From IMG/VR virus record IMGVR_UViG_3300032030_000056, positions 1 through 64,000 of that record: a DNA stretch of 64,000 bases. One strand, 5' to 3'. The position numbers were made by a program, and so were the translations under genes. The stretch comes from a virus. Lineage: Duplodnaviria > Caudoviricetes. This document shows, piece after piece, positions 41,238 to 53,304 of the stretch (position 1 is its first letter; every line of letters begins with the position of its first letter). The notes under the pieces are model-generated. The model was not told the DNA's origin. It made no database searches and saw nothing but the letters and a program-made list of their open reading frames with translations.

Positions 41238-41633
41238 TTAATTTCTGCCGATATCGGTTAATTCCTCAGTCCAGTCTTGACAATCAGCAAGCAGTCGTAT
41301 CAAATATGAGTATCGACCACTGCCTTTTGATGTGTTAGGTAATTCAGCTTGAACAAATTCTTTCAGTTCGTTAAGCATTTCAACAATGGTGAAGTGACCG
41401 CTATCGTTATATGCGTTCTCCCAATCAGTTTCATCGGTGCAAACAACTGGATATTCGTGGTGTTCTTCGCCAGTCATTTCAAACCCATAATCGCAAGTGG
41501 TCACATTTACAGAACTTTTTACCAATGAATATTCAATGTAAATATCAAAGTTAAGTTCTTTATCCTCCTGTTGGTTATATGGTGCGTTAGGGTCGTCTGC
41601 CGCACCCATCGGGTAATTATCTTTATAACTCAT
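41238..41633 (-). CDS. Hypothetical protein
   Basis: 131 aa starting with the YPMGAADDPNAPYNQ motif common in gut phage ORFs. Confidence 0.7.
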   Translation of the reverse strand: MSYKDNYPMGAADDPNAPYNQQEDKELNFDIYIEYSLVKSSVNVTTCDYGFEMTGEEHHEYPVVCTDETDWENAYNDSGHFTIVEMLNELKEFVQAELPNTSKGSGRYSYLIRLLADCQDWTEELTDIGRN

Positions 41634-42798
41634 GAATCATCATCGGCATTTGAATTGAAACATAATCAGTATTCTCGACTTGTTCATCGGGCAACACCAT
41701 AGCTGCCCTTTGACCGCTAATCAACTTGATGCGAACATTTTCGCTTTTCACATTCTTGATAACATCAACAAATGCACTGCAAGTGAAACCGATTTGAACC
41801 ATTTCCCCATTGTATTCGCAAGGGAATGTTTCTTTTGCTCTTGTGCTGTAATCAACATCAGATGCCGAAATTTCAACAATGTTGTTCTCAAAAGTCAACA
41901 CAACCATTTGTGTCTTTTGGTTGCCGAAAGCCGACACACGACGAAGTGCGGAAATGAAAGCATCACGAGCAATAACGACAACCTTATCATTTGGGTATTC
42001 TGGCAACACTGCGTCATAGTTCGGGTATCTGCCATTTGCCAACCTAGTTGACATTTTCATCACATGGTTGGAAATGGTAAACTTAGAATCGTCAAACTCG
42101 ACATTCATCGCCATGCCATCGCCATCGGTTAAATTTGACATTGAAAGGTAGTTGGAGATTACACTAGAAGGCTTTTTAGGAATAGTGAAGCCACAACCAA
42201 TAGCACAATCATCAAACATGATGTTTTCCTTAAACCGCACAAGTTTTCGTGTATCGGTTGCCACAAACACTAGTTCCTTTTTACCTTGTTCATCTGCGAT
42301 AAAATCAACATGGATGCCGCACATCTGCGGTCTTAGTTCATCATTATCAACCGCAAACTCGGTAGTATTGATGCCACTGAACAGGTCTTTTGAATTGATT
42401 TGCAATGAAACCAGCTTTCCGTTAGGCACATCGCTCGACATCGGATATTCGCTTGCATCCAAGTATGGTAATTCAAATTGGCCATTATTGTACTTGAATG
42501 TGGCAATGTGCGATTCATCGTTTAATTCAAGTTCAACGATTGCGTCACCAAGAGAGCGTAATCCAAGCGTAAGTTTTTGTGAGTCGATACAAAAAGCAAG
42601 TTTTTCATCAGTAGGTGTAAACAAAGGCACATTCAGTGACATCCATGTTTCGCCATCGCTTCCAGTGATATTCATGCCATTTTCGGTTTCAAACCTCAAA
42701 TAGTCGAACATACGGATAATGTTTTTGTTGTTGCACAATTGCGCTAATTGAACAACGCTAGGCAACACATCACTCGCCTTGAATTTAATCATTTTCAT
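41623..42798 (-). CDS. dnaN: DNA polymerase III beta sliding clamp
   Basis: 391 aa; ITGSDGET, DNDELRPQMCGI, VATDTRKLV, GRYPNYDAVLP, SIQMPM. Confidence 0.9.
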   Translation of the reverse strand: MKMIKFKASDVLPSVVQLAQLCNNKNIIRMFDYLRFETENGMNITGSDGETWMSLNVPLFTPTDEKLAFCIDSQKLTLGLRSLGDAIVELELNDESHIATFKYNNGQFELPYLDASEYPMSSDVPNGKLVSLQINSKDLFSGINTTEFAVDNDELRPQMCGIHVDFIADEQGKKELVFVATDTRKLVRFKENIMFDDCAIGCGFTIPKKPSSVISNYLSMSNLTDGDGMAMNVEFDDSKFTISNHVMKMSTRLANGRYPNYDAVLPEYPNDKVVVIARDAFISALRRVSAFGNQKTQMVVLTFENNIVEISASDVDYSTRAKETFPCEYNGEMVQIGFTCSAFVDVIKNVKSENVRIKLISGQRAAMVLPDEQVENTDYVSIQMPMMIHEL

Positions 42799-42831
42799 AA
42801 TCTTTTGTTTTCCGTTTTGTTAAAGTTGTTG

Positions 42832-42862
42832 CAAAGATAGTTTATTGTTTTTAATATCCAAA
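42832..42862 (-). promoter_or_regulatory. Promoter upstream of the clamp gene, with a degenerate operator
   Basis: TATCTTTG (42839-42832); 9/14 match to TTGCAATATTGCAA at 42849-42862 with the same 9-nt spacing. Confidence 0.55.
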
Positions 42863-42863
42863 A

Positions 42864-43199
42864 TTATTTGTCAATGTTTTTGTTTTTGTGCTTAAACAAG
42901 AGTACTGACAACTTGCTATATATGCCTTGACGATGCAGTTTCTTGATTTTGTCAAAAATGTCATTATCAAAGCAAAAGCGGTAAGAAAGACCTAACATTT
43001 TAGGCACTTCGTCACGATTTACACGTTCATCATCGCAAAGTCTAGAAAGCATCAATGTTTCTTCTTCCGTTGCAGAACATTCGCCACGTTTGTTCTCCTG
43101 TATCAAGTTGTCAAGCCATTCCTTTAAGCCAAACTTACTGGCCAAGTCTTTCAACATTGATAGGTAGTGACGTGCTATGCGTTGCAGTTCTTCATTCAT
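42864..43199 (-). CDS. Hypothetical protein, possible HTH
   Basis: 111-aa ORF. Confidence 0.65.
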   Translation of the reverse strand: MNEELQRIARHYLSMLKDLASKFGLKEWLDNLIQENKRGECSATEEETLMLSRLCDDERVNRDEVPKMLGLSYRFCFDNDIFDKIKKLHRQGIYSKLSVLLFKHKNKNIDK

Positions 43200-43387
43200 T
43201 GTTCTCTTAACCTTATGGTTATTGAATAATCATTAAGTGGAAGTAATTCACATATTCCAAGTTTAGAATTGAAAGAACAGTCTGGCGTCTGTACTTCTTG
43301 ACATACTGACACTTCAATAGGTATTAACTTTTGTTTCTCTGCATCAGTGATTAAATCATAGATGTTTTTATATGTTATTCGTTCCAT
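43196..43387 (-). CDS. Hypothetical protein
   Basis: Start placed at MERIT. Confidence 0.5.
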   Translation of the reverse strand: MERITYKNIYDLITDAEKQKLIPIEVSVCQEVQTPDCSFNSKLGICELLPLNDYSITIRLREQ

Positions 43388-43400
43388 ATTGTTGTTTTTT

Positions 43401-43495
43401 GTTTTAAGCCGTTTTAAGGGCATTAATTTGCTTGGTTAATAAACTATACCACCTAAGTAGCAAAATAGCGTCAAACACGCTTAAAATGCAAAATA
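43401..43495 (+). repeat. Dispersed ~95-bp element, copy B
   Basis: TTTTAAGCCGTTTTAAGGGC...AATAAACTATACCACC...CAAACACGCTTAAAATGC. Confidence 0.72.
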
Positions 43496-43503
43496 GGCAT
43501 ATT

Positions 43504-45645
43504 CTAAAATGGTGCAGGGTTGTCGCTTGGTGTAAAATCATCCCACAAAGGCGGTTCTTCTTGTGCTTGCGCCATTTGTTGCGGTTGTGGTTGATATTCC
43601 ATTTGCACTTGCGTAGGATTTTCTTCCCAACCATAATGGATAACCTCATCTTGCGTGTTTTTAAACCTTCGGCTTTCTATTTCATAGTGCATACCGACCA
43701 TGTGGTCAACAATGCCGTACATTCTGTTCTTGCAAACCTCAATCACATTGCCAAAACCTTGATACCTTTGTATCTCGCCTTGACCGAAATACTCTGCACC
43801 AGTTCGCAAAAAGTCGTTGTTTACACGATGCACGATAAACACGTTGTCAACGGCATTGGTTAAGTCGCTAGAGCCGCTGATGTCGTTTTTACGCAAAAAA
43901 GTCAATGATTTTCGTGGGTGAGCAACCAAGATGATATGCACGTTGTTCCTTTTCGCAAAATCCTTGATTTGGAGTATCAATTCCTTTTGCTTGTTGTTCC
44001 TATCTCCGTCAAAAAGGTCAATATCCAACGAAAACAAGTTGTCAAGCGTAAAAACCTTAACATTCGCTTTCAACAACTCTTCCATATCGTGAAAGATTTG
44101 TTGCCATTTAGTGCCATACTCGTTGTTGTAAAGGAAAAACTTTCCGTCAAGCCAATGGTCAATGCTTTCTGCCACACCTTGCGGCACATAATACTTGCCA
44201 TTGCCATAAGATGATGGCTTTAGGTGTTCACGACCAGCAGCAACCATTTGCAACCATGCTTTCAAGATGTCGGGGCGCAACTCACCACTCCATAAAGCAA
44301 CATTTGTGCCTTGTTGGACTATATTCAAAAGCAAAGTGTTTAACCATGATGATTTACCGCTACTGTTGCTACCACTTAACAACGTAACCTCAGACATATT
44401 CAACCCTACAATAGCTCGGTCAAGTTCAATAAAGCCAGTTTTTACGTTTTCTAGCGCAGATAGGTCTATTTTTTTGATGTCTGACAAACATAGCCATTTA
44501 CCACCCAATTCGGGTAATTCCTGCTTAATCTCATACTTTGGCTTTGGCGGCCTCATGTATGGCATAGGCATCATAGGCGGCATATTGCCATATTGTTGTT
44601 GCCTATCATAAGCGTTTGGCTCGTATTTCAACCTTACATCATGCCATTTCTTGTCTTTGCAATGTGAATGAGTGCAATTAAACGTGATTTTACCCTGTCC
44701 ATCAACAAATAATGCACTATCCCATTTTTTGCGGTCACTATGGTTCTCAATCCAAGGACAAAACTCCAATTCATAGATTGTGCTATCACCACTTGATTTT
44801 TGCCTATATTTTATGCCTTGCCTATCCAACCAAGATGATAGAGTGAATTGTGTCAAACCAACCCAATTGCCACGAAATGCAACTGGAGATTGCTTTGGTC
44901 CTTCTTTTGGCAATAAGTCGGCAATCTTATGAAATAGTGAATCATCATTTGCTGATAAGTCTTGAGGCACTTTAACAACCCTTGCAATCCTCCAAGGTCT
45001 TTCTTGACTGTTTGCGCCTTTCTTTGCCCATGTGCCTAGTAACTTGTCAATTCTTGCAGGATTGAACACTTTTTCATCTATGCCAACGTGTTGGTCACTA
45101 AACAAAACACTCAAGGATTGGAGAAACCTTTTTACCAACTCATTATGTTCATTGTCATTCGGCATATTGCATGGCAAGTAAAGATGCCATCCATTTCCGC
45201 TTACTGTCACAATAGGTTCGTTAAATCCTTGTTTAAGCAAGTATTTATACACATCAACGCATTTTTGGTGCGCTTGCTCAAATTCCTCATTGCTTGAACT
45301 AATACCTGCCGCCCTATTTGGGTCAAGGTCTATCATCACAAATCTTCGTCTTGTGATGTCACCATCGGTTGTCGTGCTTTTTGGCTTTTTGACAAATATA
45401 TCCCTTTGCTCACGGCTATACAAATCGGTGTTGATGTCATTTAGCGTGAAATAGGCTTGCATAGTGCCATAGAATTTCTCGCTATCATGTGACAACAATG
45501 GTTTCAGTCTTGCAACCAATGTTTCAACATTTGTAAAGTAGCCGCTGAAAGTAGTCTTGCCTAAAAGTCGTATTTCGACAAGTTTACCATCACGCTTGAA
45601 GATTTGCCACCACAATTGTAGTTGTTGTTCGTCTATCTCGTACAT
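43504..45645 (-). CDS. AEP-type primase fused to DnaB-like (SF4) helicase
   Basis: IDLDP, SGNGWHLY, RIDK (AEP motifs); CPW..H..C.HSHC Zn site; GSNSSGKS, LDNL, LVAHPRK, GSSD, KNRMYG. Confidence 0.85.
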   Translation of the reverse strand: MYEIDEQQLQLWWQIFKRDGKLVEIRLLGKTTFSGYFTNVETLVARLKPLLSHDSEKFYGTMQAYFTLNDINTDLYSREQRDIFVKKPKSTTTDGDITRRRFVMIDLDPNRAAGISSSNEEFEQAHQKCVDVYKYLLKQGFNEPIVTVSGNGWHLYLPCNMPNDNEHNELVKRFLQSLSVLFSDQHVGIDEKVFNPARIDKLLGTWAKKGANSQERPWRIARVVKVPQDLSANDDSLFHKIADLLPKEGPKQSPVAFRGNWVGLTQFTLSSWLDRQGIKYRQKSSGDSTIYELEFCPWIENHSDRKKWDSALFVDGQGKITFNCTHSHCKDKKWHDVRLKYEPNAYDRQQQYGNMPPMMPMPYMRPPKPKYEIKQELPELGGKWLCLSDIKKIDLSALENVKTGFIELDRAIVGLNMSEVTLLSGSNSSGKSSWLNTLLLNIVQQGTNVALWSGELRPDILKAWLQMVAAGREHLKPSSYGNGKYYVPQGVAESIDHWLDGKFFLYNNEYGTKWQQIFHDMEELLKANVKVFTLDNLFSLDIDLFDGDRNNKQKELILQIKDFAKRNNVHIILVAHPRKSLTFLRKNDISGSSDLTNAVDNVFIVHRVNNDFLRTGAEYFGQGEIQRYQGFGNVIEVCKNRMYGIVDHMVGMHYEIESRRFKNTQDEVIHYGWEENPTQVQMEYQPQPQQMAQAQEEPPLWDDFTPSDNPAPF

Positions 45646-45651
45646 AGCGAA

Positions 45652-45813
45652 TTATGTTGTTATGTTGCAGCTATAATGATATACACTATAATCTAGGTAT
45701 GTCGAAGTTGAATACCTTTCAATAGTTATAGATTTGATACTGCAACCATGTTCTTTCTCAAATTGTGTTGCTAACTTGATAAATTCCTCTTTGTATTGGT
45801 CTATCGTTTTCAT
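45652..45813 (-). CDS. Small hypothetical protein
   Basis: 53 aa from MKTID; ATGA overlap with the upstream stop. Confidence 0.5.
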   Translation of the reverse strand: MKTIDQYKEEFIKLATQFEKEHGCSIKSITIERYSTSTYLDYSVYHYSCNITT

Positions 45814-46691
45814 CGCTTTACCCATTTTTGTTGTTGCTTGTTCCACGTTAATGTTCCACGGCCATTATTGAGAACGATTTTTGCCCCATCGGGTCGCTTA
45901 TCATCATCATAACCATCTGCAATGCTATCTCCATCAAAATACCAACCAGTATAGAGGAAACACTTGTAGTAGTCATTCCACATCAATGCACCACCAGTAA
46001 TAGGGTGATATGTGTTGTCGTTCTCTTTGTTCGGGTCAAACATCACATTGTTGCCTTGAATGATTACATCATTGAATGTTTTGTCACGCAGGTAGCGTTC
46101 AAAGTCCTTTTGGTAGCTTTTTTCTCTAGTTGCCACATAAACCTTGATATGTTGCGCCACACAATCCATTTCTTTGTCAGTTAGCTTGTGCCAATATTCT
46201 TTGGCTTTTTTCTTGCTTCCTTTTCGATTGTAGGCAACCCAACATTGCTCAAATAGTTCTTCTTTTTCTTTTTTGGTATTTTTTTCTTTTTCTTTAATTG
46301 TAATGCCAAATATAGTATTACAATCAATATTATTACTACTAGTATTATTACTAGTATTATTGGGTGCAATTTTTGCACTACCCCTGTCGAATTTTTGCAC
46401 TAGTGGTGCAATTTTTGCACTACCCAATGAGTAATAACAAAACTTGATGTTGTTTCTTGTTTCTTCACGTTTTTTAATCAAACCATCATCAACAAGAGAT
46501 TTCAATGTTGCTATAATGGTGTTTCTTGTCAAGTTAGTCCATTCGCATAGATAGTTAATACTGCCATTAAACTCGTGATTTCCGTCTTTACAAAAACCAT
46601 GAATAATAGCATATATAATAAGCCGATTGCCACTTAAACCGAGTTTAGTGACCATCGGTGCTTGAATGACTATATAATCATCTTGCTTCAT
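45810..46691 (-). CDS. Replication initiator (N-terminal winged HTH, lambda O-like)
   Basis: LIIYAIIHGF...SINYLCEWTNLTRNTIIATLKSLVDDGLIKK; internal repeat-encoded linker; C-terminal FEQCWVAYNRKGSKKKAKEYW. Confidence 0.75.
   Translation of the reverse strand: MKQDDYIVIQAPMVTKLGLSGNRLIIYAIIHGFCKDGNHEFNGSINYLCEWTNLTRNTIIATLKSLVDDGLIKKREETRNNIKFCYYSLGSAKIAPLVQKFDRGSAKIAPNNTSNNTSSNNIDCNTIFGITIKEKEKNTKKEKEELFEQCWVAYNRKGSKKKAKEYWHKLTDKEMDCVAQHIKVYVATREKSYQKDFERYLRDKTFNDVIIQGNNVMFDPNKENDNTYHPITGGALMWNDYYKCFLYTGWYFDGDSIADGYDDDKRPDGAKIVLNNGRGTLTWNKQQQKWVKR
46328..46425. promoter_or_regulatory. Putative replication origin: three iterons and an AT-rich tract inside the initiator gene
   Basis: AATTTTTGCACTA at 46368, 46390 and 46410 (22- and 20-bp spacing) beside a TATTATTACTA-type tract. 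Confidence 0.65.
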
Positions 46692-47440
46692 TGTTCTGGA
46701 TAATCATTAGAATTAAATATAGATAATTGACTATTTTCTTGTGGCAAACCTAATATACAATCGCATATAAAGTTCCTTGCATAATCAGCAGAAATCATAG
46801 ACCTCTCCTTATTACAAATACCATTTTGCCATGTTCCTCTACTTTTTGCAAGTTGATGTTTTTTTTGTTTTTTATCAAATTGATATGTAAATAAGTTTGT
46901 TGGCTCACAATTAAAAAACCAATAGCCAGTAGGTTTAACAAAATAATCTCCACGCAACATTCTATTATTATCTCTTATTGACGGAGGTTTTATAAAATAA
47001 TTATTCAAAAAACTTCCTGTAATTGGGTTTTCAAAAATCAAACGAAATTTACGTTTTAAGCAAACCCTTACCATTTTTGTCAATGTGATGAGATATTCAT
47101 TTCTTCTTTTTTGCCTCTCGATTATTTTATCACACGCTTCCCATTGCTCTAGTGACCTATAATTTGTATAATTCAAACTATGTGCATATTGCGACATTTG
47201 ACAAAAATATATACAAGGGAAAAATGCAAATATAAGGTCATTGCTAGTTATTTTATCAAAAACGCTAGGCTTATCATCATAGGCATCATTAATTGCTTTG
47301 AATAAGTCTTCAATATAGTCTGTTTGTCCAAAGTCATTTTTAATATCATAGTCTTCCGCATTGATACCTAACTTAATGAACTCGTTTTTGAATGTCCCAC
47401 TCTGTTCAAAAAAGCAATAAACTTTGCCTCTTATTTCCAT
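46688..47440 (-). CDS. C5-cytosine methyltransferase-like protein
   Basis: VYCFFEQSG (motif I-like), AFFPC (catalytic PC), IFENP, KPTGYW; C-terminal QLSIF. Confidence 0.65.
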   Translation of the reverse strand: MEIRGKVYCFFEQSGTFKNEFIKLGINAEDYDIKNDFGQTDYIEDLFKAINDAYDDKPSVFDKITSNDLIFAFFPCIYFCQMSQYAHSLNYTNYRSLEQWEACDKIIERQKRRNEYLITLTKMVRVCLKRKFRLIFENPITGSFLNNYFIKPPSIRDNNRMLRGDYFVKPTGYWFFNCEPTNLFTYQFDKKQKKHQLAKSRGTWQNGICNKERSMISADYARNFICDCILGLPQENSQLSIFNSNDYPEQ

Positions 47441-47455
47441 GTTAAAAATAATTAA

Positions 47456-48043
47456 TTATTCTCTTTGTTGGTCTATGAGTTTATAAAATTCCGCCTTAAC
47501 ATTATTGTCAGACTTAAATATTCCCGATAGATGTGAAACGGTCATTTTTCCATTACTCTTCACACCCCTCATTGTTTTGCATAAATGCGTTCCACGTAAA
47601 ACAATAGCCATGCCTTGAACATTGCCATCAAGAGCATCGGTAAGCATTTTGATAATATCAAGAGCTAATCTTTCCTGTAATTGAAGTCTTGCTGCGCAAT
47701 ACCCAACAACTCTAGCAATTTTTGAAATTCCTAAAATTCTTCCATCTTCATTTGGTATATATGCAAAATAATATTTACCAAAAAAAGGCATCATGTGGTG
47801 TTCACACATAGAATAATAATCACCTGTATCGAAAACAATATCAGTAGACCTCATATCGTTTTCAAATGTTGTTATTTTTGGTGCTTGATTTGGGTCATAA
47901 CCACGAAAGATTTCACTCCACATACGAATAATTCTGTCTGGAGTTCCCAATAAGCCTTCTCTTTCTGGGTTTTCCCCAATATGCAATAATATTGTTTTTA
48001 TCGCACATTCAATATCTTTTGTGTTTGTAACGATAGTCTCCAT
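47456..48043 (-). CDS. folE: GTP cyclohydrolase I
   Basis: REGLLGTPDR, SMCEHH, GISKIAR, LQLQERL, HLCKTMRGVK. Confidence 0.95.
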   Translation of the reverse strand: METIVTNTKDIECAIKTILLHIGENPEREGLLGTPDRIIRMWSEIFRGYDPNQAPKITTFENDMRSTDIVFDTGDYYSMCEHHMMPFFGKYYFAYIPNEDGRILGISKIARVVGYCAARLQLQERLALDIIKMLTDALDGNVQGMAIVLRGTHLCKTMRGVKSNGKMTVSHLSGIFKSDNNVKAEFYKLIDQQRE

Positions 48044-48576
48044 TTTGGATTTTTTTTAATAAATTCTACACATTGTTTAATAATCTCTTTGTTTCTTTTA
48101 TTATCCCCTGTATCACAAGGTTGAATATAATAATAATCGGCCTGTATGCCAAAGTTTGATATTTGATGAATACCGTCATATACAACTTTAACTTCGTTTG
48201 CGTGTTTGATAACAGGATGCCCGATTTCCCCAACATATCCTTGTTTTGGAGATACTGTAACCCAATCTATATTACTTAATACAGGTCGCGTTCCATTTGT
48301 TTCTATGGCAACGTATTTTCTTATTGCGTGTAATTTATCAATAAGTGTTTTTGTTAGTTGTATTGTTGGTTCACCACCTGTAATCACAACAAGTTCTGCG
48401 GGATTTTCTGATACAACATTTATTATCTCATCTTCAGGCATAATAATCCAATCTTTATGGTTTGTGTCGCAAAAAGAACACTTTAGATTACACCCAGCAA
48501 ATCGAATAAAAGTTGCTGCAGTTCCGGAATAATATCCCTCCCCTTGTATTGAGTAAAAAATCTCGTTTACTTTCAT
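47998..48576 (-). CDS. queE: 7-carboxy-7-deazaguanine synthase (radical SAM)
   Basis: FYSIQGEG, FIRFAGCNLKCSFCDT, ITGGEP, IETNGT, SLQTQK. Confidence 0.95.
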   Translation of the reverse strand: MKVNEIFYSIQGEGYYSGTAATFIRFAGCNLKCSFCDTNHKDWIIMPEDEIINVVSENPAELVVITGGEPTIQLTKTLIDKLHAIRKYVAIETNGTRPVLSNIDWVTVSPKQGYVGEIGHPVIKHANEVKVVYDGIHQISNFGIQADYYYIQPCDTGDNKRNKEIIKQCVEFIKKNPKWRLSLQTQKILNVR

Positions 48577-48578
48577 AA

Positions 48579-48911
48579 CTAACTCTGTTCGTAAATCGCA
48601 ATATTACCATCACTCTCCTGAACGCTGCATTTGTAACACTCGTGTATTTGCTGTGTTACCCATTTTGCAATATTTTCTGCGGTAGGATTAAACTCAACAA
48701 CATCGTTAAGTAATTTATGGTCGAGTTTGTCGTGTATCATTTTTTTAATAATTGTAAAATCAACAACCATACCATTTTTGTTGAGTTTTTCAGACTTGCA
48801 ATATACTGTAACTATCCAGTTATGCCCATGAAGATTACTGCATTTGCTATTGTAATCAAGAGTCAACATATGAGCTCCTGCAATTTCTAATTTTTTTATA
48901 ACGTAATACAT
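48579..48911 (-). CDS. queD: 6-carboxytetrahydropterin synthase
   Basis: AHML...CSNLHGHNW, DHKLLN, NPTAENIA. Confidence 0.95.
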   Translation of the reverse strand: MYYVIKKLEIAGAHMLTLDYNSKCSNLHGHNWIVTVYCKSEKLNKNGMVVDFTIIKKMIHDKLDHKLLNDVVEFNPTAENIAKWVTQQIHECYKCSVQESDGNIAIYEQS

Positions 48912-48922
48912 AATGAATATTT

Positions 48923-49576
48923 TTATTGTTCATATTTTGTTTTATCATCAATTCCGGCCTCAATCATTGCTTGTTTTCTTTCAACACAGGTTCCGCATTG
49001 CCCACAATGATTTTCTCCTCCCTTATAGCACGAATATGTCATTGAGTAGTCAATCCCAAGTTTTTTACCTATCCTAGCAATATCTGCTTTACTGATGCCA
49101 GTATAAGGTGCTGAAATATTGACATTGTTATATGTGCCATAAGCCATCGCTTCGTTCATTGACTCTATAAAAGTTGCCCTACAATCGGGATAAATGGCAT
49201 GGTCTCCGAAATGGTTGGCGATGAGTACCTTTTTAAGCCCTTTGCTTTCAGCCAATCCACACGCTATTGATAACATAATACCATTACGAAATGGAACAAC
49301 TGTTGATTTCATGTTTTCATCCGCATAATGCCCATTTGGTATAGCATCAGCACCTTCAAGTAATGAAGATTTGAAATAATCACCGATAAAGGTTAAAGGA
49401 ATTACAATGTGCGGAATACCAAGTTTTTTACAATGAATTTTTGCAAATTCTATCTCCCTTTTATTGTGGTTACTGCCATAGTCAAATGTAACCGCTAAAG
49501 ATATCTCGAATTGTTTATCATATAGTAGAGTTACGCTATCCATACCTCCACTAACTATTATTATAGAATCTTTCAT
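48923..49576 (-). CDS. queC: 7-cyano-7-deazaguanine synthase
   Basis: SGGMDS, VPFRNGIMLS, YPDCR, TYSCY...HCGQCGTCVER. Confidence 0.96.
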   Translation of the reverse strand: MKDSIIIVSGGMDSVTLLYDKQFEISLAVTFDYGSNHNKREIEFAKIHCKKLGIPHIVIPLTFIGDYFKSSLLEGADAIPNGHYADENMKSTVVPFRNGIMLSIACGLAESKGLKKVLIANHFGDHAIYPDCRATFIESMNEAMAYGTYNNVNISAPYTGISKADIARIGKKLGIDYSMTYSCYKGGENHCGQCGTCVERKQAMIEAGIDDKTKYEQ

Positions 49577-49582
49577 ATTTTT

Positions 49583-49909
49583 TTATTTGTCGCTTTCTAT
49601 TGTAACACTCCAATCAGTTAAATCTTGATTATCCTCCAAAAAAACAGTTACTTTTAAGTAACTAGGCTCAATTGTTTTTATTATTTCATCATAAACATTA
49701 ATAGCTATATCTTCTATTAAATCATAGAATTGCTTATCAAAAAATTTACGATATTCTATAATATCAAGAACCTTATTATTTGGAATATACTCTATTGCTA
49801 CATTACAATACTCTTTTTGGCCTGTAACTTTGCAATAATTCACAAATGGCTTTATTTTTTCAAAGCGTATTTTTATTTTTTTTGATGAGTTAAAATTTAT
49901 GGCTTTCAT
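49583..49909 (-). CDS. QueF-like T-fold protein lacking the NADPH motif (candidate amidinotransferase, QueF-L)
   Basis: CKVTGQKE aligns to QueF CPxTGQPD; YIPNNKVLDIIEYRKF replaces the E(S/L)KSxKLY motif; conserved Glu in LIED. Confidence 0.7.
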   Translation of the reverse strand: MKAINFNSSKKIKIRFEKIKPFVNYCKVTGQKEYCNVAIEYIPNNKVLDIIEYRKFFDKQFYDLIEDIAINVYDEIIKTIEPSYLKVTVFLEDNQDLTDWSVTIESDK

Positions 49910-49910
49910 T

Positions 49911-50837
49911 TTATGTTGTAATTAGAATTTGTTTTCCATATTCTCTATAGTCTTGGTTGCCACACCAAATTTCGTACAGTCGTTTATACATTTCGCAGCT
50001 AACTATACTCGCGTTTGTTATCCTTGCGCTTTGGTATTGTTCTATTGACTCCCATAAGTCGTTCCCAACCATAGCCTTTACTTTATTTGTGTCCAGCCAT
50101 TCGATTCGATGTCCGCTTGTGGTTAGCTCTCCAAATTGCATAGGCTTCTGCCAAGTAACGCTGTCGCTACTTGTGCATAAATGTGCGCATTGTTGTAATA
50201 CACTTTGTTTTGTGCAACCAAGTAGGTGTATATCAATAGTTGGTTTTTTTTCTTTGATATATTTTACTAGAGGTAATGTGTAAAGGTTGTTTTTTGTCAC
50301 ACCACTACCTATAGCAAGATAATCGCTATACTCTATAAGCCTATCCAAACCATATTTATGGTCTTCTATATGATATACATTGATTATCCTATTATTAGGA
50401 AGCTCCTCGGCCATCCTTTTTCTGAGTGCCCAAGTTTCTTCTACGCCAAGAACGGCTTGTGCATCAACCTCTACAACTGTCACATCTTGAGCATGGTCGT
50501 TTGTAAACCTTATTAATTCGTCATACCATTTATATACAAATTCTTTTGTTGCTTTGTCTTTATGTTTCCCAAATAGTAAACTATATAATCCACTATCTTG
50601 GATGGTATGTCGCATATTACAGTTAATATATTGAGGCATTTGCATATTTGCATCGGTCATCCATTTAAGAGGTATAATAGGCCACACCTTTTTCTTGAAT
50701 ATCCTTTCAGCAACAAAAGGGAATGCGGTATATAAACCATATTGAACACCTAATTGTGATGCAACAATACAATAATTAGGTTTTTCAACACCAGCAAAAT
50801 GAACTTTTAGATTTTGTGGTAAATGTAATTGTTCCAT
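49911..50837 (-). CDS. dpdA: DNA 7-deazaguanine transglycosylase (TGT-like)
   Basis: QDSGLYS, IHLLG, TSSDS motifs, adjacent to the preQ0 genes. Start placed at MEQLHL. Confidence 0.8.
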   Translation of the reverse strand: MEQLHLPQNLKVHFAGVEKPNYCIVASQLGVQYGLYTAFPFVAERIFKKKVWPIIPLKWMTDANMQMPQYINCNMRHTIQDSGLYSLLFGKHKDKATKEFVYKWYDELIRFTNDHAQDVTVVEVDAQAVLGVEETWALRKRMAEELPNNRIINVYHIEDHKYGLDRLIEYSDYLAIGSGVTKNNLYTLPLVKYIKEKKPTIDIHLLGCTKQSVLQQCAHLCTSSDSVTWQKPMQFGELTTSGHRIEWLDTNKVKAMVGNDLWESIEQYQSARITNASIVSCEMYKRLYEIWCGNQDYREYGKQILITT

Positions 50838-50838
50838 G

Positions 50839-51330
50839 TCAGTCGAATATAGAAAGTTGCCTAGGCTCAATAAAATCTTCTGATTTTTTAACTTGAACTA
50901 CATTTTGATGTTCCTGGTCAAATAAATCCTCAAGATTTAATGGTTTAACAACACACTCAAACCCTCCCCATTGTCTAGGGTCAAAATTTGGATTAGTTTC
51001 CATATCGGATAGAATGTTGTCACAATTCCATGATAAGTTTTTTGATTGGGATAGATTATCAACAAGTGCTATCTCTTTCCCTTTTGTATCATTTATGGAA
51101 ACATCTATTCTTCTTATGCATATTAAAACATCGCCACAAGTATCTATTGTAACAACTTTAATCCCTAGCTTTTTTGCAGCTAAAAACACATCGTTCCCAC
51201 AGAGGATATTACCATCTCTGTCCGATACAATTGAGCGGGCGCATCCGAGTTTTTTTAAGGAGTGTTGGATGAGTCCATTACCATAACTCGTCCCGTCATT
51301 ATATCTATTTTCGTTTTTTTTAATGCTCAT
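50839..51330 (-). CDS. ParB/Srx-like N-terminal domain protein
   Basis: NRYNDGT...SLKKLGCARSIVSDRDGNILCGN..AAKKLG...EIALVDN; ends QLSIFD. Confidence 0.7.
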   Translation of the reverse strand: MSIKKNENRYNDGTSYGNGLIQHSLKKLGCARSIVSDRDGNILCGNDVFLAAKKLGIKVVTIDTCGDVLICIRRIDVSINDTKGKEIALVDNLSQSKNLSWNCDNILSDMETNPNFDPRQWGGFECVVKPLNLEDLFDQEHQNVVQVKKSEDFIEPRQLSIFD

Positions 51331-51474: not shown

Positions 51475-51882
51475 TTAGAACGGTGGTTGTTCTGAAGAAG
51501 GGCTAGGCATTGGTGCGGGTGCTGGAGAATAACCACCATATTGTGGTTGTGGTGCTTGCGGGTGGTAAGGCGCAGGATTCACTTGTTGATGTTGTGCTAC
51601 ATTTGCTTCGTTTTCCCTTGTCGCTTTCCACGCATTAATTGACGTGAAATACTTGCCGTTGTATTGTCTGCTTTCGATGTCGAAACTTACTGTGTAAATT
51701 CCGCCAAGTTGAATATTCATTTGAGCATACTTGTCTTGCCCAAGTGTTTGAAAGTAGATAACACGAGGATAATCCCCAAAAGTAGTACCAACGAAAGAAT
51801 ACCTTGTGTAAGTTGTTGCTCCGTCTTTACCTAAGAAACTTTGCGGTTCAAGGATTTCGGTAATTTTTACTTGTACTTCCAT
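51475..51882 (-). CDS. DUF3127-type OB-fold ssDNA-binding-like protein
   Basis: TFGDYPRVIYFQTLG...VSFDIESRQYNGKYFTSINAWK; Pro/Gln tail ending QPPF. Confidence 0.75.
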   Translation of the reverse strand: MEVQVKITEILEPQSFLGKDGATTYTRYSFVGTTFGDYPRVIYFQTLGQDKYAQMNIQLGGIYTVSFDIESRQYNGKYFTSINAWKATRENEANVAQHQQVNPAPYHPQAPQPQYGGYSPAPAPMPSPSSEQPPF

Positions 51883-51929
51883 TTTCTTTGTTTTGTTGTT
51901 TGTTGAGTTTGTAATGTTGATATTTCCTG

Positions 51930-51960
51930 CAAAGATACAACACTCGTTGCAATATTGCAA
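51930..51960 (-). promoter_or_regulatory. Promoter with operator palindrome
   Basis: TATCTTTG (51937-51930); TTGCAATATTGCAA at 51947-51960. Confidence 0.8.
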
Positions 51961-52706: not shown

Positions 52707-53093
52707 TCAAAAAAGACTTTCTTCGGCATCCTTGCAAGCCTTTTCAAATTCAGCTTTCAATTCATCCAGTTTTTGTCTAACTTCATCACTTATGCGTGGG
52801 CAACCATTCAACCAAGACCTAAAATTAGGTATATTTTGGTTGTATTGTTCTGCCCAAATGCAATACTCGTTCCATTGGTCGAAATATGCGAAATTCACAT
52901 CTTCGTTAACAATGATGCGTATCGTGTCATAGTCTAGTGCGTAATTATCGCCATAGCACCACAACCCGCCAATTTCATCACTGACCCAAAAGCCATAGCT
53001 TTCCTCAAGATGCCATTTTTTGCATAACATCTTGACGTAGCCATTGGCGGTTAATTCGAAGTTCTTTTTTAGTGTTTCGACCTTGTTATCCAT
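52707..53093 (-). CDS. Hypothetical protein
   Basis: Start placed at MDNKVETL, after the stop of the upstream gene. Confidence 0.65.
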   Translation of the reverse strand: MDNKVETLKKNFELTANGYVKMLCKKWHLEESYGFWVSDEIGGLWCYGDNYALDYDTIRIIVNEDVNFAYFDQWNEYCIWAEQYNQNIPNFRSWLNGCPRISDEVRQKLDELKAEFEKACKDAEESLF

Positions 53094-53097
53094 TTCT

Positions 53098-53304
53098 TTA
53101 GTTTTCTTCTTTTTTGCCATTTCGAGCGTACCATTCATCATAATCCGTTGGTTTCTCGATAAGTCGCCCATTCATCTTACCTCTTGAAAATGTATGTACT
53201 GGTAAAACACCAGAACTAATCAAGTGATAGACGTGAGCGGTTGTTTTGCCTATATATTCGGCATATTGGCTTACTGTTATGTAATTCTCTACTGAATTAG
53301 TCAT
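53098..53304 (-). CDS. Excisionase/MerR-type HTH DNA-binding protein
   Basis: YITVSQYAEYIGKTTAHVYHLISSGVLP. Confidence 0.75.
   Translation of the reverse strand: MTNSVENYITVSQYAEYIGKTTAHVYHLISSGVLPVHTFSRGKMNGRLIEKPTDYDEWYARNGKKEEN

Follow-up and report, generated by a model that had tools for sequence, protein, structure and literature searches.

Pol II, Pol IV, UmuC, MutS, Hda, PolC and many insertion-sequence (IS) transposases are clients of the bacterial beta sliding clamp and carry a C-terminal QL(S/D)LF peptide (PMC9690074). In DNA modification, bacterial DpdA requires a ParB-fold ATPase partner, DpdB (PMC10164549), and phage 7-deazaguanine insertion has been described as post-replicative (PMC6884629, PMC10516641). 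Full-text searches turned up no paper in which DpdA or a DNA methyltransferase of bacteria or phages is linked to a clamp-binding motif. Here we describe a gene block of the Caudoviricetes record IMGVR_UViG_3300032030_000056 in which a methyltransferase-like (MTase-like) protein and the ParB_N-like (hereafter ParB-like) partner of a DpdA-like enzyme both carry a QLSIF tail. The window, meaning the whole stretch analysed, is the first 64 kb of this complete 79,785-bp virus record, which has direct terminal repeats (whole genome, G000). Loci from related phages are labeled L, contigs of homologue proteins P and virus records G. Judging from sequence, the two modifiers probably dock on the beta clamp by these tails, which would couple modification to replication. 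The four genes central to this proposal are as follows.

41623..42798, minus strand: beta sliding clamp DnaN, 391 amino acids (aa); three Pfam clamp domains (expect values, E, of 8e-18, 1e-8 and 7e-8); best PDB sequence match 8dt6 (E 1e-39)
46688..47440, minus strand: minimal C5-cytosine-methyltransferase-like protein, 250 aa, QLSIF tail at residues 238-242; phrog_757 'DNA methyltransferase' (E 2e-22)
49911..50837, minus strand: DpdA-like enzyme of the DNA/tRNA-guanine-transglycosylase (TGT) fold, divergent subfamily; phrog_887 (E 8e-16)
50839..51330, minus strand: ParB_N-like partner of the DpdA-like enzyme, 163 aa, QLSIFD tail at residues 158-163; PHROG ParB-like families (E 3e-9 to 4e-5)

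An earlier note on this DNA had placed the MTase-like, ParB-like and dnaN genes at these positions, and a check of the open reading frames (ORFs) agrees, with all three on the minus strand. The tails it had reported are also present: the MTase-like protein ends in ENSQLSIFNSNDYPEQ, with the motif 8 residues before the end, and the ParB-like protein ends in EPRQLSIFD. The tailed genes do bracket a block of FolE, QueE, QueD, QueC, QueF-like and DpdA-like genes. Among all window ORFs of at least 60 aa, QL[SD][LI]F occurs twice, and both occurrences are these tails. When the 109-protein proteome was shuffled 20,000 times, the mean was 0.061 motifs anywhere and 0.0035 in the last 15 residues, against the two tails observed, and the two-tail outcome was reached in 0 of the 20,000 shuffles. 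The pair of tails exceeds chance.

The alignments indicate that the tail behaves as a conserved short linear motif in both families. All nine close ParB-like homologues end in [QE]L[ST][LI]FD. A profile of the ParB-like family, searched against 1.84 billion representatives, returned 3263 representative ParB_N-type clusters, ParB_N-methyltransferase fusions included, and the whole protein could be aligned only for the closest ~22 clusters (formed at 50% identity for the tail alignment). Almost all of them carry xx[LI]F[DE] at the C-terminus; the tail phenylalanine, F162, is invariant in the 22 clusters down to 30% identity, and the 15-25-residue K/E-rich linker ahead of it is variable. The MTase-like family comprises 6773 clusters at 90% identity. 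Among its distinct relatives, 173 of 193 carry [LIMF]F in the last 18 residues, the phenylalanine being the final residue in 88 of these tails. Position by position, the 173 tails have Q in 126, L in 86, S or T in 101, L in 145 and F in all 173, then a stop or D/E, and the consensus over the 193 relatives is Q-L-[ST]-L-F followed by a stop or D/E. Strict matches number 91 in the relatives and 0 in shuffled controls. The published C-terminal clamp-binding motif, QL(S/D)LF, is the same as this tail consensus (PMC9690074). The claim that both proteins carry clamp-type motifs has therefore stood up: the tails fit the consensus, follow variable linkers and persist in homologues.

The same tail reaches beyond these two families. 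When the final 12 residues of all ORFs in the loci analysed were scanned, Q[LM]x[LIMF]F had 60 matches, of which 37 are MTase-like, 7 ParB-like and 16 others. The last group includes four N6_N4 DNA methyltransferases, one phrog_799 methyltransferase, one DUF4942 methyltransferase, one radical SAM protein and one PcfK-like protein. In the form xx[LI][FW], the tail is found on ~15 of the ~18 full-length N6_N4 methyltransferases in these loci. That one tail occurs on DNA-modifying proteins of unrelated folds argues, more strongly than any other comparison made here, for a universal hub on DNA, for which the clamp is the obvious candidate; host clamps are universal. The PcfK-like and radical SAM proteins (L107:3095-3655 and L020:1263-2450) end in QLDLF and QLSLF, respectively. 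The phage of the window is of a gut type.

Because the two tailed genes bracket the Que cluster beside dnaN, it is tempting to see one replication-coupled double-modification system that works on the phage's own clamp and uses the ParB-like protein as a CTP switch, as the earlier note did. The relatives tell against a single system. None of the 47 virus records with the MTase-like gene also has this DpdA-like gene (a count without its own positive control); a local tblastn search, positive in L002 and L003, agrees, and it places Que genes close to the MTase-like gene in L047 and L077 alone. In L002, whose cluster proteins are 74-87% identical to those of the window, the MTase-like gene has shrunk to a 51-aa C-terminal remnant (L002:13911-14066), still ending in ELSLFD. 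Near this remnant an N6_N4 methyltransferase (L002:14932-15726) ends in KTLWDL, and a homing-endonuclease gene of the HNH/NUMOD4 type precedes the primase-helicase gene.

Dependence on the phage clamp fares little better. DnaN is encoded in 6 of the 47 MTase-like records and in 3 of the 27 that are at least 90% complete, and the tail is kept throughout; the comparison of homologues with and without a phage clamp, which the note had called for, finds the motif retained although most of these records lack DnaN. The tailed ParB-like proteins present a different picture, and one that favors the phage clamp, with DnaN in all four complete or near-complete records (G000, the L002 contig, G048 and G049) and in 0 of the 32 DpdA records whose partner is of another type. 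These four DnaNs, 35-40% identical to each other, belong to one lineage, and no DnaN lies within 12-20 kb around the ParB-like/DpdA-like pair in the partial contigs L202, L203 and L166. The co-occurrence of tail and DnaN is therefore unproven and probably reflects shared lineage, and we have downgraded the idea that the tail requires the phage clamp. The CTP switch is unsupported because the arginine of the GxxR/DGQQR motif is missing across the tailed clade, the window protein having CGNDV and all 22 tailed clusters having V or T at that position. A single double-modification system of this kind now seems improbable to us.

The phage DnaN itself may still be able to receive such a peptide, as its sequence retains the hydrophobic character of the cleft, including the subsite-1 positions. 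Compared with E. coli DnaN, over a set of residues that we take to line the clamp pocket, L155 is replaced by M and V360 by I, and V170, T172, L177, P242, V247 and the C-terminal M362-P363-M364 are kept. DNA polymerases of families A, B and C (PolA, PolB and PolIII-alpha) were not detected in the complete 79.8-kb genome, which does encode DnaN, the primase-helicase, SSB-like (single-stranded DNA-binding-like) proteins and the resolvase. The phage clamp would then have to serve a host polymerase, itself a user of such a motif. Some proteins of phages and some toxins are known to target the clamp, and the tails could instead serve mainly to block or hijack the host clamp, shutting off host replication or competing with host polymerases, and not to position enzymes; a DnaN of its own could spare phage replication from such a block. 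We think this very improbable, as most tail carriers lack their own clamp, and the tails sit on enzymes with invariant catalytic residues (PC and ENP in the MTase-like family) and on an accessory protein locked to a DpdA-like gene.

That accessory protein, the tailed ParB-like protein, is encoded directly upstream of the DpdA-like gene in every context seen, namely the window, L002, L003, L084/L169, L104, L164/L202, L166, L203 and the P0009 and P0250 contigs. The spacer from the ParB-like TGA to the DpdA-like ATG is 1 nt. Of 80 viral contigs with this DpdA subfamily, nearly all have an ORF of 110-250 aa upstream, and several of these sister proteins exceed the Pfam ParB_N cut-off. When aligned, the partners have in common a ParB_N core and an L-x-L-D-D-F-F segment and differ in the C-terminal module, which may be a QLSLF tail, a CPxCG zinc ribbon or another small domain. 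A ParB_N partner is, by these alignments, general for this DpdA subfamily, and its C-terminal modules interchangeable. The window protein runs from a ParB_N-like part through a short motif and a linker to the tail, and its 163 aa hold no SspE-like alpha-helical C-terminal domain; it matched nothing in the PADLOC and NCBIfam models. As the fixed gene partner of the DpdA-like enzyme in all contexts, it fits the adaptor role that had been proposed for it.

One segment of these partners deserves separate mention. A peptide of the form L-x-[LIV]-[DE]-D-[FL]-[FL] (LNLEDLF, residues 131-137 of the window protein) is common to all ParB_N-like partners of the DpdA subfamily. We considered it as a second clamp motif and disfavor this, because it is present in partners with any C-terminal module, whatever their tail; it is more likely something else, and a DpdA-docking peptide is a candidate. 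A 285-aa 'ParB-like partition protein', related to the window ParB-like protein, is encoded by Porphyromonas phage phage005b (L168; PP754928.1 15327-17109), where its gene overlaps the next one, whose 313-aa product is annotated as a beta-glucosyl-HMC-alpha-glucosyltransferase. The two genes could form a further DNA-modification pair with a ParB-type partner, unless the annotation is wrong.

For the DpdA-like enzyme, 309-319 aa in length, the likeliest start is the ATG at 50837, 1 nt past the ParB-like TGA, and not the TTG at 50870; this choice agrees with relative L002 and with a model in which residues 1-14 are disordered. The AlphaFold2 (AF2) model has a predicted local distance difference test score (pLDDT) of 86.6, and Foldseek aligns it over its whole length with Zymomonas mobilis TGT (E 3e-5, probability 1.0, TM ~0.5), so that the fold is a TGT-type TIM barrel. 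A QDSG motif (D92 in QDSGL), D136 and D236 are invariant in the family, and the three aspartates are candidate equivalents of the TGT catalytic residues. A glutamate racemase match of the family profile among PDB sequences was dismissed as chance. A related-locus search with the single DpdA-like sequence gave no matches, and an alignment query was required. The subfamily has at least 884 metagenomic members; by tblastn its only isolate relative is orf78 of Faecalibacterium phage Roos, an unannotated ORF at 36% identity, apart from weak Sulfolobus virus matches. Sequence and model together place the protein in a divergent and essentially uncharacterised DpdA-like subfamily.

The genes that would feed this enzyme vary around the ParB-like/DpdA-like core, from full FolE/QueDEC sets with or without QueF to a Vut_1 transporter or DpdA-QueC fusions. 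FolE, QueE, QueD and QueC adjoin the DpdA-like gene in the window, L002, L164, L203 and the P0250 contig. In L166 (6001-8088), the gene that comes after this pair, in place of FolE/QueDEC, is Vut_1, a YhhQ-type queuosine-precursor transporter, which suggests precursor salvage rather than synthesis. Fusions of the DpdA-like protein with QueC, 523-526 aa long, exist in the subfamily (P0132, P0134 and P0135). In G048, two tandem DpdA-like paralogues follow the tailed ParB-like gene (L169:2912-4684), and ~4 kb downstream two N6_N4 methyltransferases (L084:8064-9530, from the same record) end in QLTLF and QLSLF.

The other tailed protein is harder to place. Across 27 sequences the MTase-like family has invariant F-x-x-S-G, FPC (P75, C76) and ENP (E137-N138-P139) motifs; from their pattern we take F-x-x-S-G, PC and ENP to be motifs I, IV and VI of C5-cytosine methyltransferases. 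The window protein has no Pfam match, its family profile matched nothing among PDB sequences, and PADLOC and NCBIfam gave nothing, leaving phrog_757 as the sole match. The AF2 model has a pLDDT of 72; residues 141-210 are poorly modeled, and no target-recognition domain is recognisable in the protein. VIA-align places DNMT3A, M.HhaI, MET1, DNMT3B and Dnmt2 in the top rows with Z of 7.2-7.9, a range common for chance Rossmann matches, Foldseek reaches E 4e-3 at best, and in the Atlas neighbour cluster of the protein 14% of members carry PF00145. From motifs and model, we read it as a putative minimal C5-pyrimidine-methyltransferase-like enzyme. We rejected its identity with DpdM, the preQ1 methylase, because the family is unlinked to Que genes and carries C5-methyltransferase motifs, and DpdM has been described with a fold not seen before among nucleic acid methylases (PMC10516641).

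We propose a model where two separate modification modules share one docking device. The first would be the minimal C5-methyltransferase-like enzyme, and the second the ParB_N-like helper, translationally coupled to the TGT-fold DpdA-like transglycosylase and fed by the phage preQ0 pathway. In both, the flexible C-terminal QL[ST][LI]F peptide most likely enters the hydrophobic cleft of a beta clamp, that of the host, the phage DnaN or both. Because clamps stay on freshly replicated DNA, the methylase and a helper-DpdA complex could be concentrated on new phage DNA ahead of host nucleases. Sequence evidence of this kind suggests that both modifications would be written directly behind the replication fork. 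More tentatively, at somewhat less than even odds, we would extend the model to gut Bacteroidota phages as a group, which may repeatedly put the clamp peptide on modifiers of unrelated folds, with a ParB_N-derived adaptor, devoid of a nucleotide switch, handing the DpdA-like enzyme to the clamp. Were this extension correct, 7-deazaguanine insertion and methylation would be co-replicative and not simply post-replicative, and the interchangeable adaptor modules (clamp tail, zinc ribbon and others) would each offer DpdA a different route onto DNA.

Several observations weigh against docking on the clamp, or against the identity of the docked enzymes. In the window MTase-like protein the motif stands short of the C-terminus by the 8 residues noted above, and the AF2 model renders the tail as a short low-confidence helix (pLDDT <60). 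The assignment of this protein to the methyltransferase fold is no better than Z 7-8, and the DpdA-like protein matches no TGT or DpdA model in Pfam, NCBIfam or PADLOC and no PDB profile, phrog_887 being its sole sequence match. The PF00145 C5 methylase and a class-I methyltransferase of L164 have no tail. Many MTase-like relatives lack Q or L at motif positions 1-2 (QPTLF, QKSLF, LTTLF), and clamp affinity may therefore vary widely.

This degeneracy also leaves room for a tail that is a degradation or packaging tag, or that docks on some other shared hub, for which phage replisome proteins like the primase-helicase and the SSB-like DUF3127 protein are candidates. The phage does seem to use several short docking tails: the primase-helicase ends in DNPAPF and the DUF3127 SSB-like protein in EQPPF (in relatives APF or VPF, and LPF or DDDLPF, respectively), and by sequence these PF tips resemble the SSB C-terminal tip. 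Such a hub is nevertheless unlikely in our view. Taken position by position, the tail consensus Q-L-[ST]-L-F gives the canonical clamp motif (PMC9690074), and the tail is found across very different replication modules, most of them without DnaN and without this primase-helicase, so that a universal host hub fits better than a phage-specific one. Docking on the clamp thus remains the reading that we prefer. A function-unassigned protein of 154 aa (52707-53171, minus strand; phrog_35741) ends in EESLF, and its L002 homologue in SESLF, which is possibly a third clamp-type tail of this phage.

The tailed genes belong to one tightly packed minus-strand block that runs from 51960 down to 39859 (ORF map, with assignments from Pfam and PHROGs). 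In order, it holds the DUF3127 SSB-like, ParB-like, DpdA-like, QueF-like, QueC, QueD, QueE, FolE, MTase-like, DnaD-like initiator and primase-helicase genes, then two small ORFs, DnaN, three small ORFs (one with a DnaA-type helix-turn-helix, HTH) and a Holliday-junction resolvase. Its remaining assigned members are the following.

43504..45645, minus strand: primase-helicase with PrimPol-like N-terminus and DnaB-like C-terminus, 713 aa; Pfam DnaB_C (E 2e-8), AAA_25 and a weak LigD_Prim-Pol match
45810..46691, minus strand: replication initiator or DnaD-like HTH protein, 293 aa; Pfam HTH_36, phrog_270 replication initiation protein (E 1e-19)
47456..48043, minus strand: FolE (GTP cyclohydrolase I); Pfam (E 2e-52)
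47998..48576, minus strand: QueE-type radical SAM enzyme; Pfam Radical_SAM (E 4e-13) and its place inside the Que cluster
48579..48911, minus strand: QueD (PTPS family); Pfam (E 3e-28)
48923..49576, minus strand: QueC; Pfam (E 3e-58)
49583..49909, minus strand: short QueF or QueF-L-like protein, 108 aa; NCBIfam QueF-II (E 3e-9, under the cut-off) and a weak Pfam QueF match
51475..51960, minus strand: DUF3127 SSB-like protein at the head of the block; Pfam DUF3127 (E 2e-19), phrog_4932 single-strand DNA binding protein

The primase-helicase provides the replication-module context of the modification cluster. The product of the QueF-like step, dPreQ1 or dG+, is not distinguishable by sequence (PMC6884629). 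The DUF3127 SSB-like gene is kept upstream of the ParB-like gene in L002, L003, L164 and the P0250 contig. GC content falls to 0.32 at 46001-50000, which covers the MTase-like gene and the Que cluster, against ~0.40 in the rest of the genome; this is consistent with acquisition of these genes as cargo. By megablast, the 9.7-kb region had no match among GenBank phages.

Phage DNA has to be modified quickly if it is to evade host restriction, which raises the practical question of how this speed is reached. A clamp-docking tail, carried by a DpdA helper and by several phage methyltransferase families, would offer a concrete mechanism that is cheap to test. Of these carriers, the DpdA helper is the new one. 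Beyond it lies a large, unannotated phage pairing of ParB_N and DpdA proteins, parallel to that of DpdB and DpdA, which may explain the failures of some phage DpdA enzymes in heterologous tests.

It is useful to set these modules against described systems. Like bacterial clamp clients, the phage proteins have the pentapeptide consensus and a flexible terminus, and the motif has been gained convergently by unrelated mobile-element proteins (PMC9690074, PMC4549789). The carriers differ in that they are C5-MTase-like proteins, N6/N4 methyltransferases and a base-exchange helper, all of them putative clients by sequence. With DpdA-DpdB of Salmonella Montevideo, the phage system has in common a TGT-fold DNA transglycosylase, a ParB-fold accessory protein and products of the preQ0 pathway (PMC10164549). 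DpdB is a two-domain protein of ~40-47 kDa, whereas the phage partner has 163 aa; neither the NTPase arginine of DGQQR/GxxR nor a helical domain of the SspE-like kind is present in it, and a clamp-type tail takes their place. The phage DpdA-like enzyme, moreover, matches no curated DpdA/TGT sequence model, and no restriction genes are attached, unlike in the bacterial Dpd system.

The phage DpdA1-DpdA4 systems likewise combine FolE-QueD-QueE-QueC, with or without QueF, with a DpdA-type transglycosylase, and the papers that describe them mention neither a ParB-type partner nor a clamp link (PMC6884629, PMC10516641). A ParB_N-type domain is also joined to a DNA modifier in phage ParB_N-DNA methyltransferase fusions (phrog_498; 'DNA methylase N-4/N-6' of Aphanizomenon phage CL131); in the window the ParB_N-like protein is a separate polypeptide with a transglycosylase partner and a clamp-type tail. 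In eukaryotes, DNMT1 is a C5 cytosine methyltransferase that is tethered by a PIP box to the replication clamp PCNA and methylates new DNA (PMC9690074), and a similar tethering may occur in the phage. The eukaryotic pair belongs to another domain of life, uses another clamp and motif, and relies on a maintenance enzyme with large regulatory domains, in contrast to a 250-aa minimal phage enzyme without a recognisable target-recognition domain. If our model is correct, the tailed modifiers would be a prokaryotic counterpart of DNMT1-PCNA.

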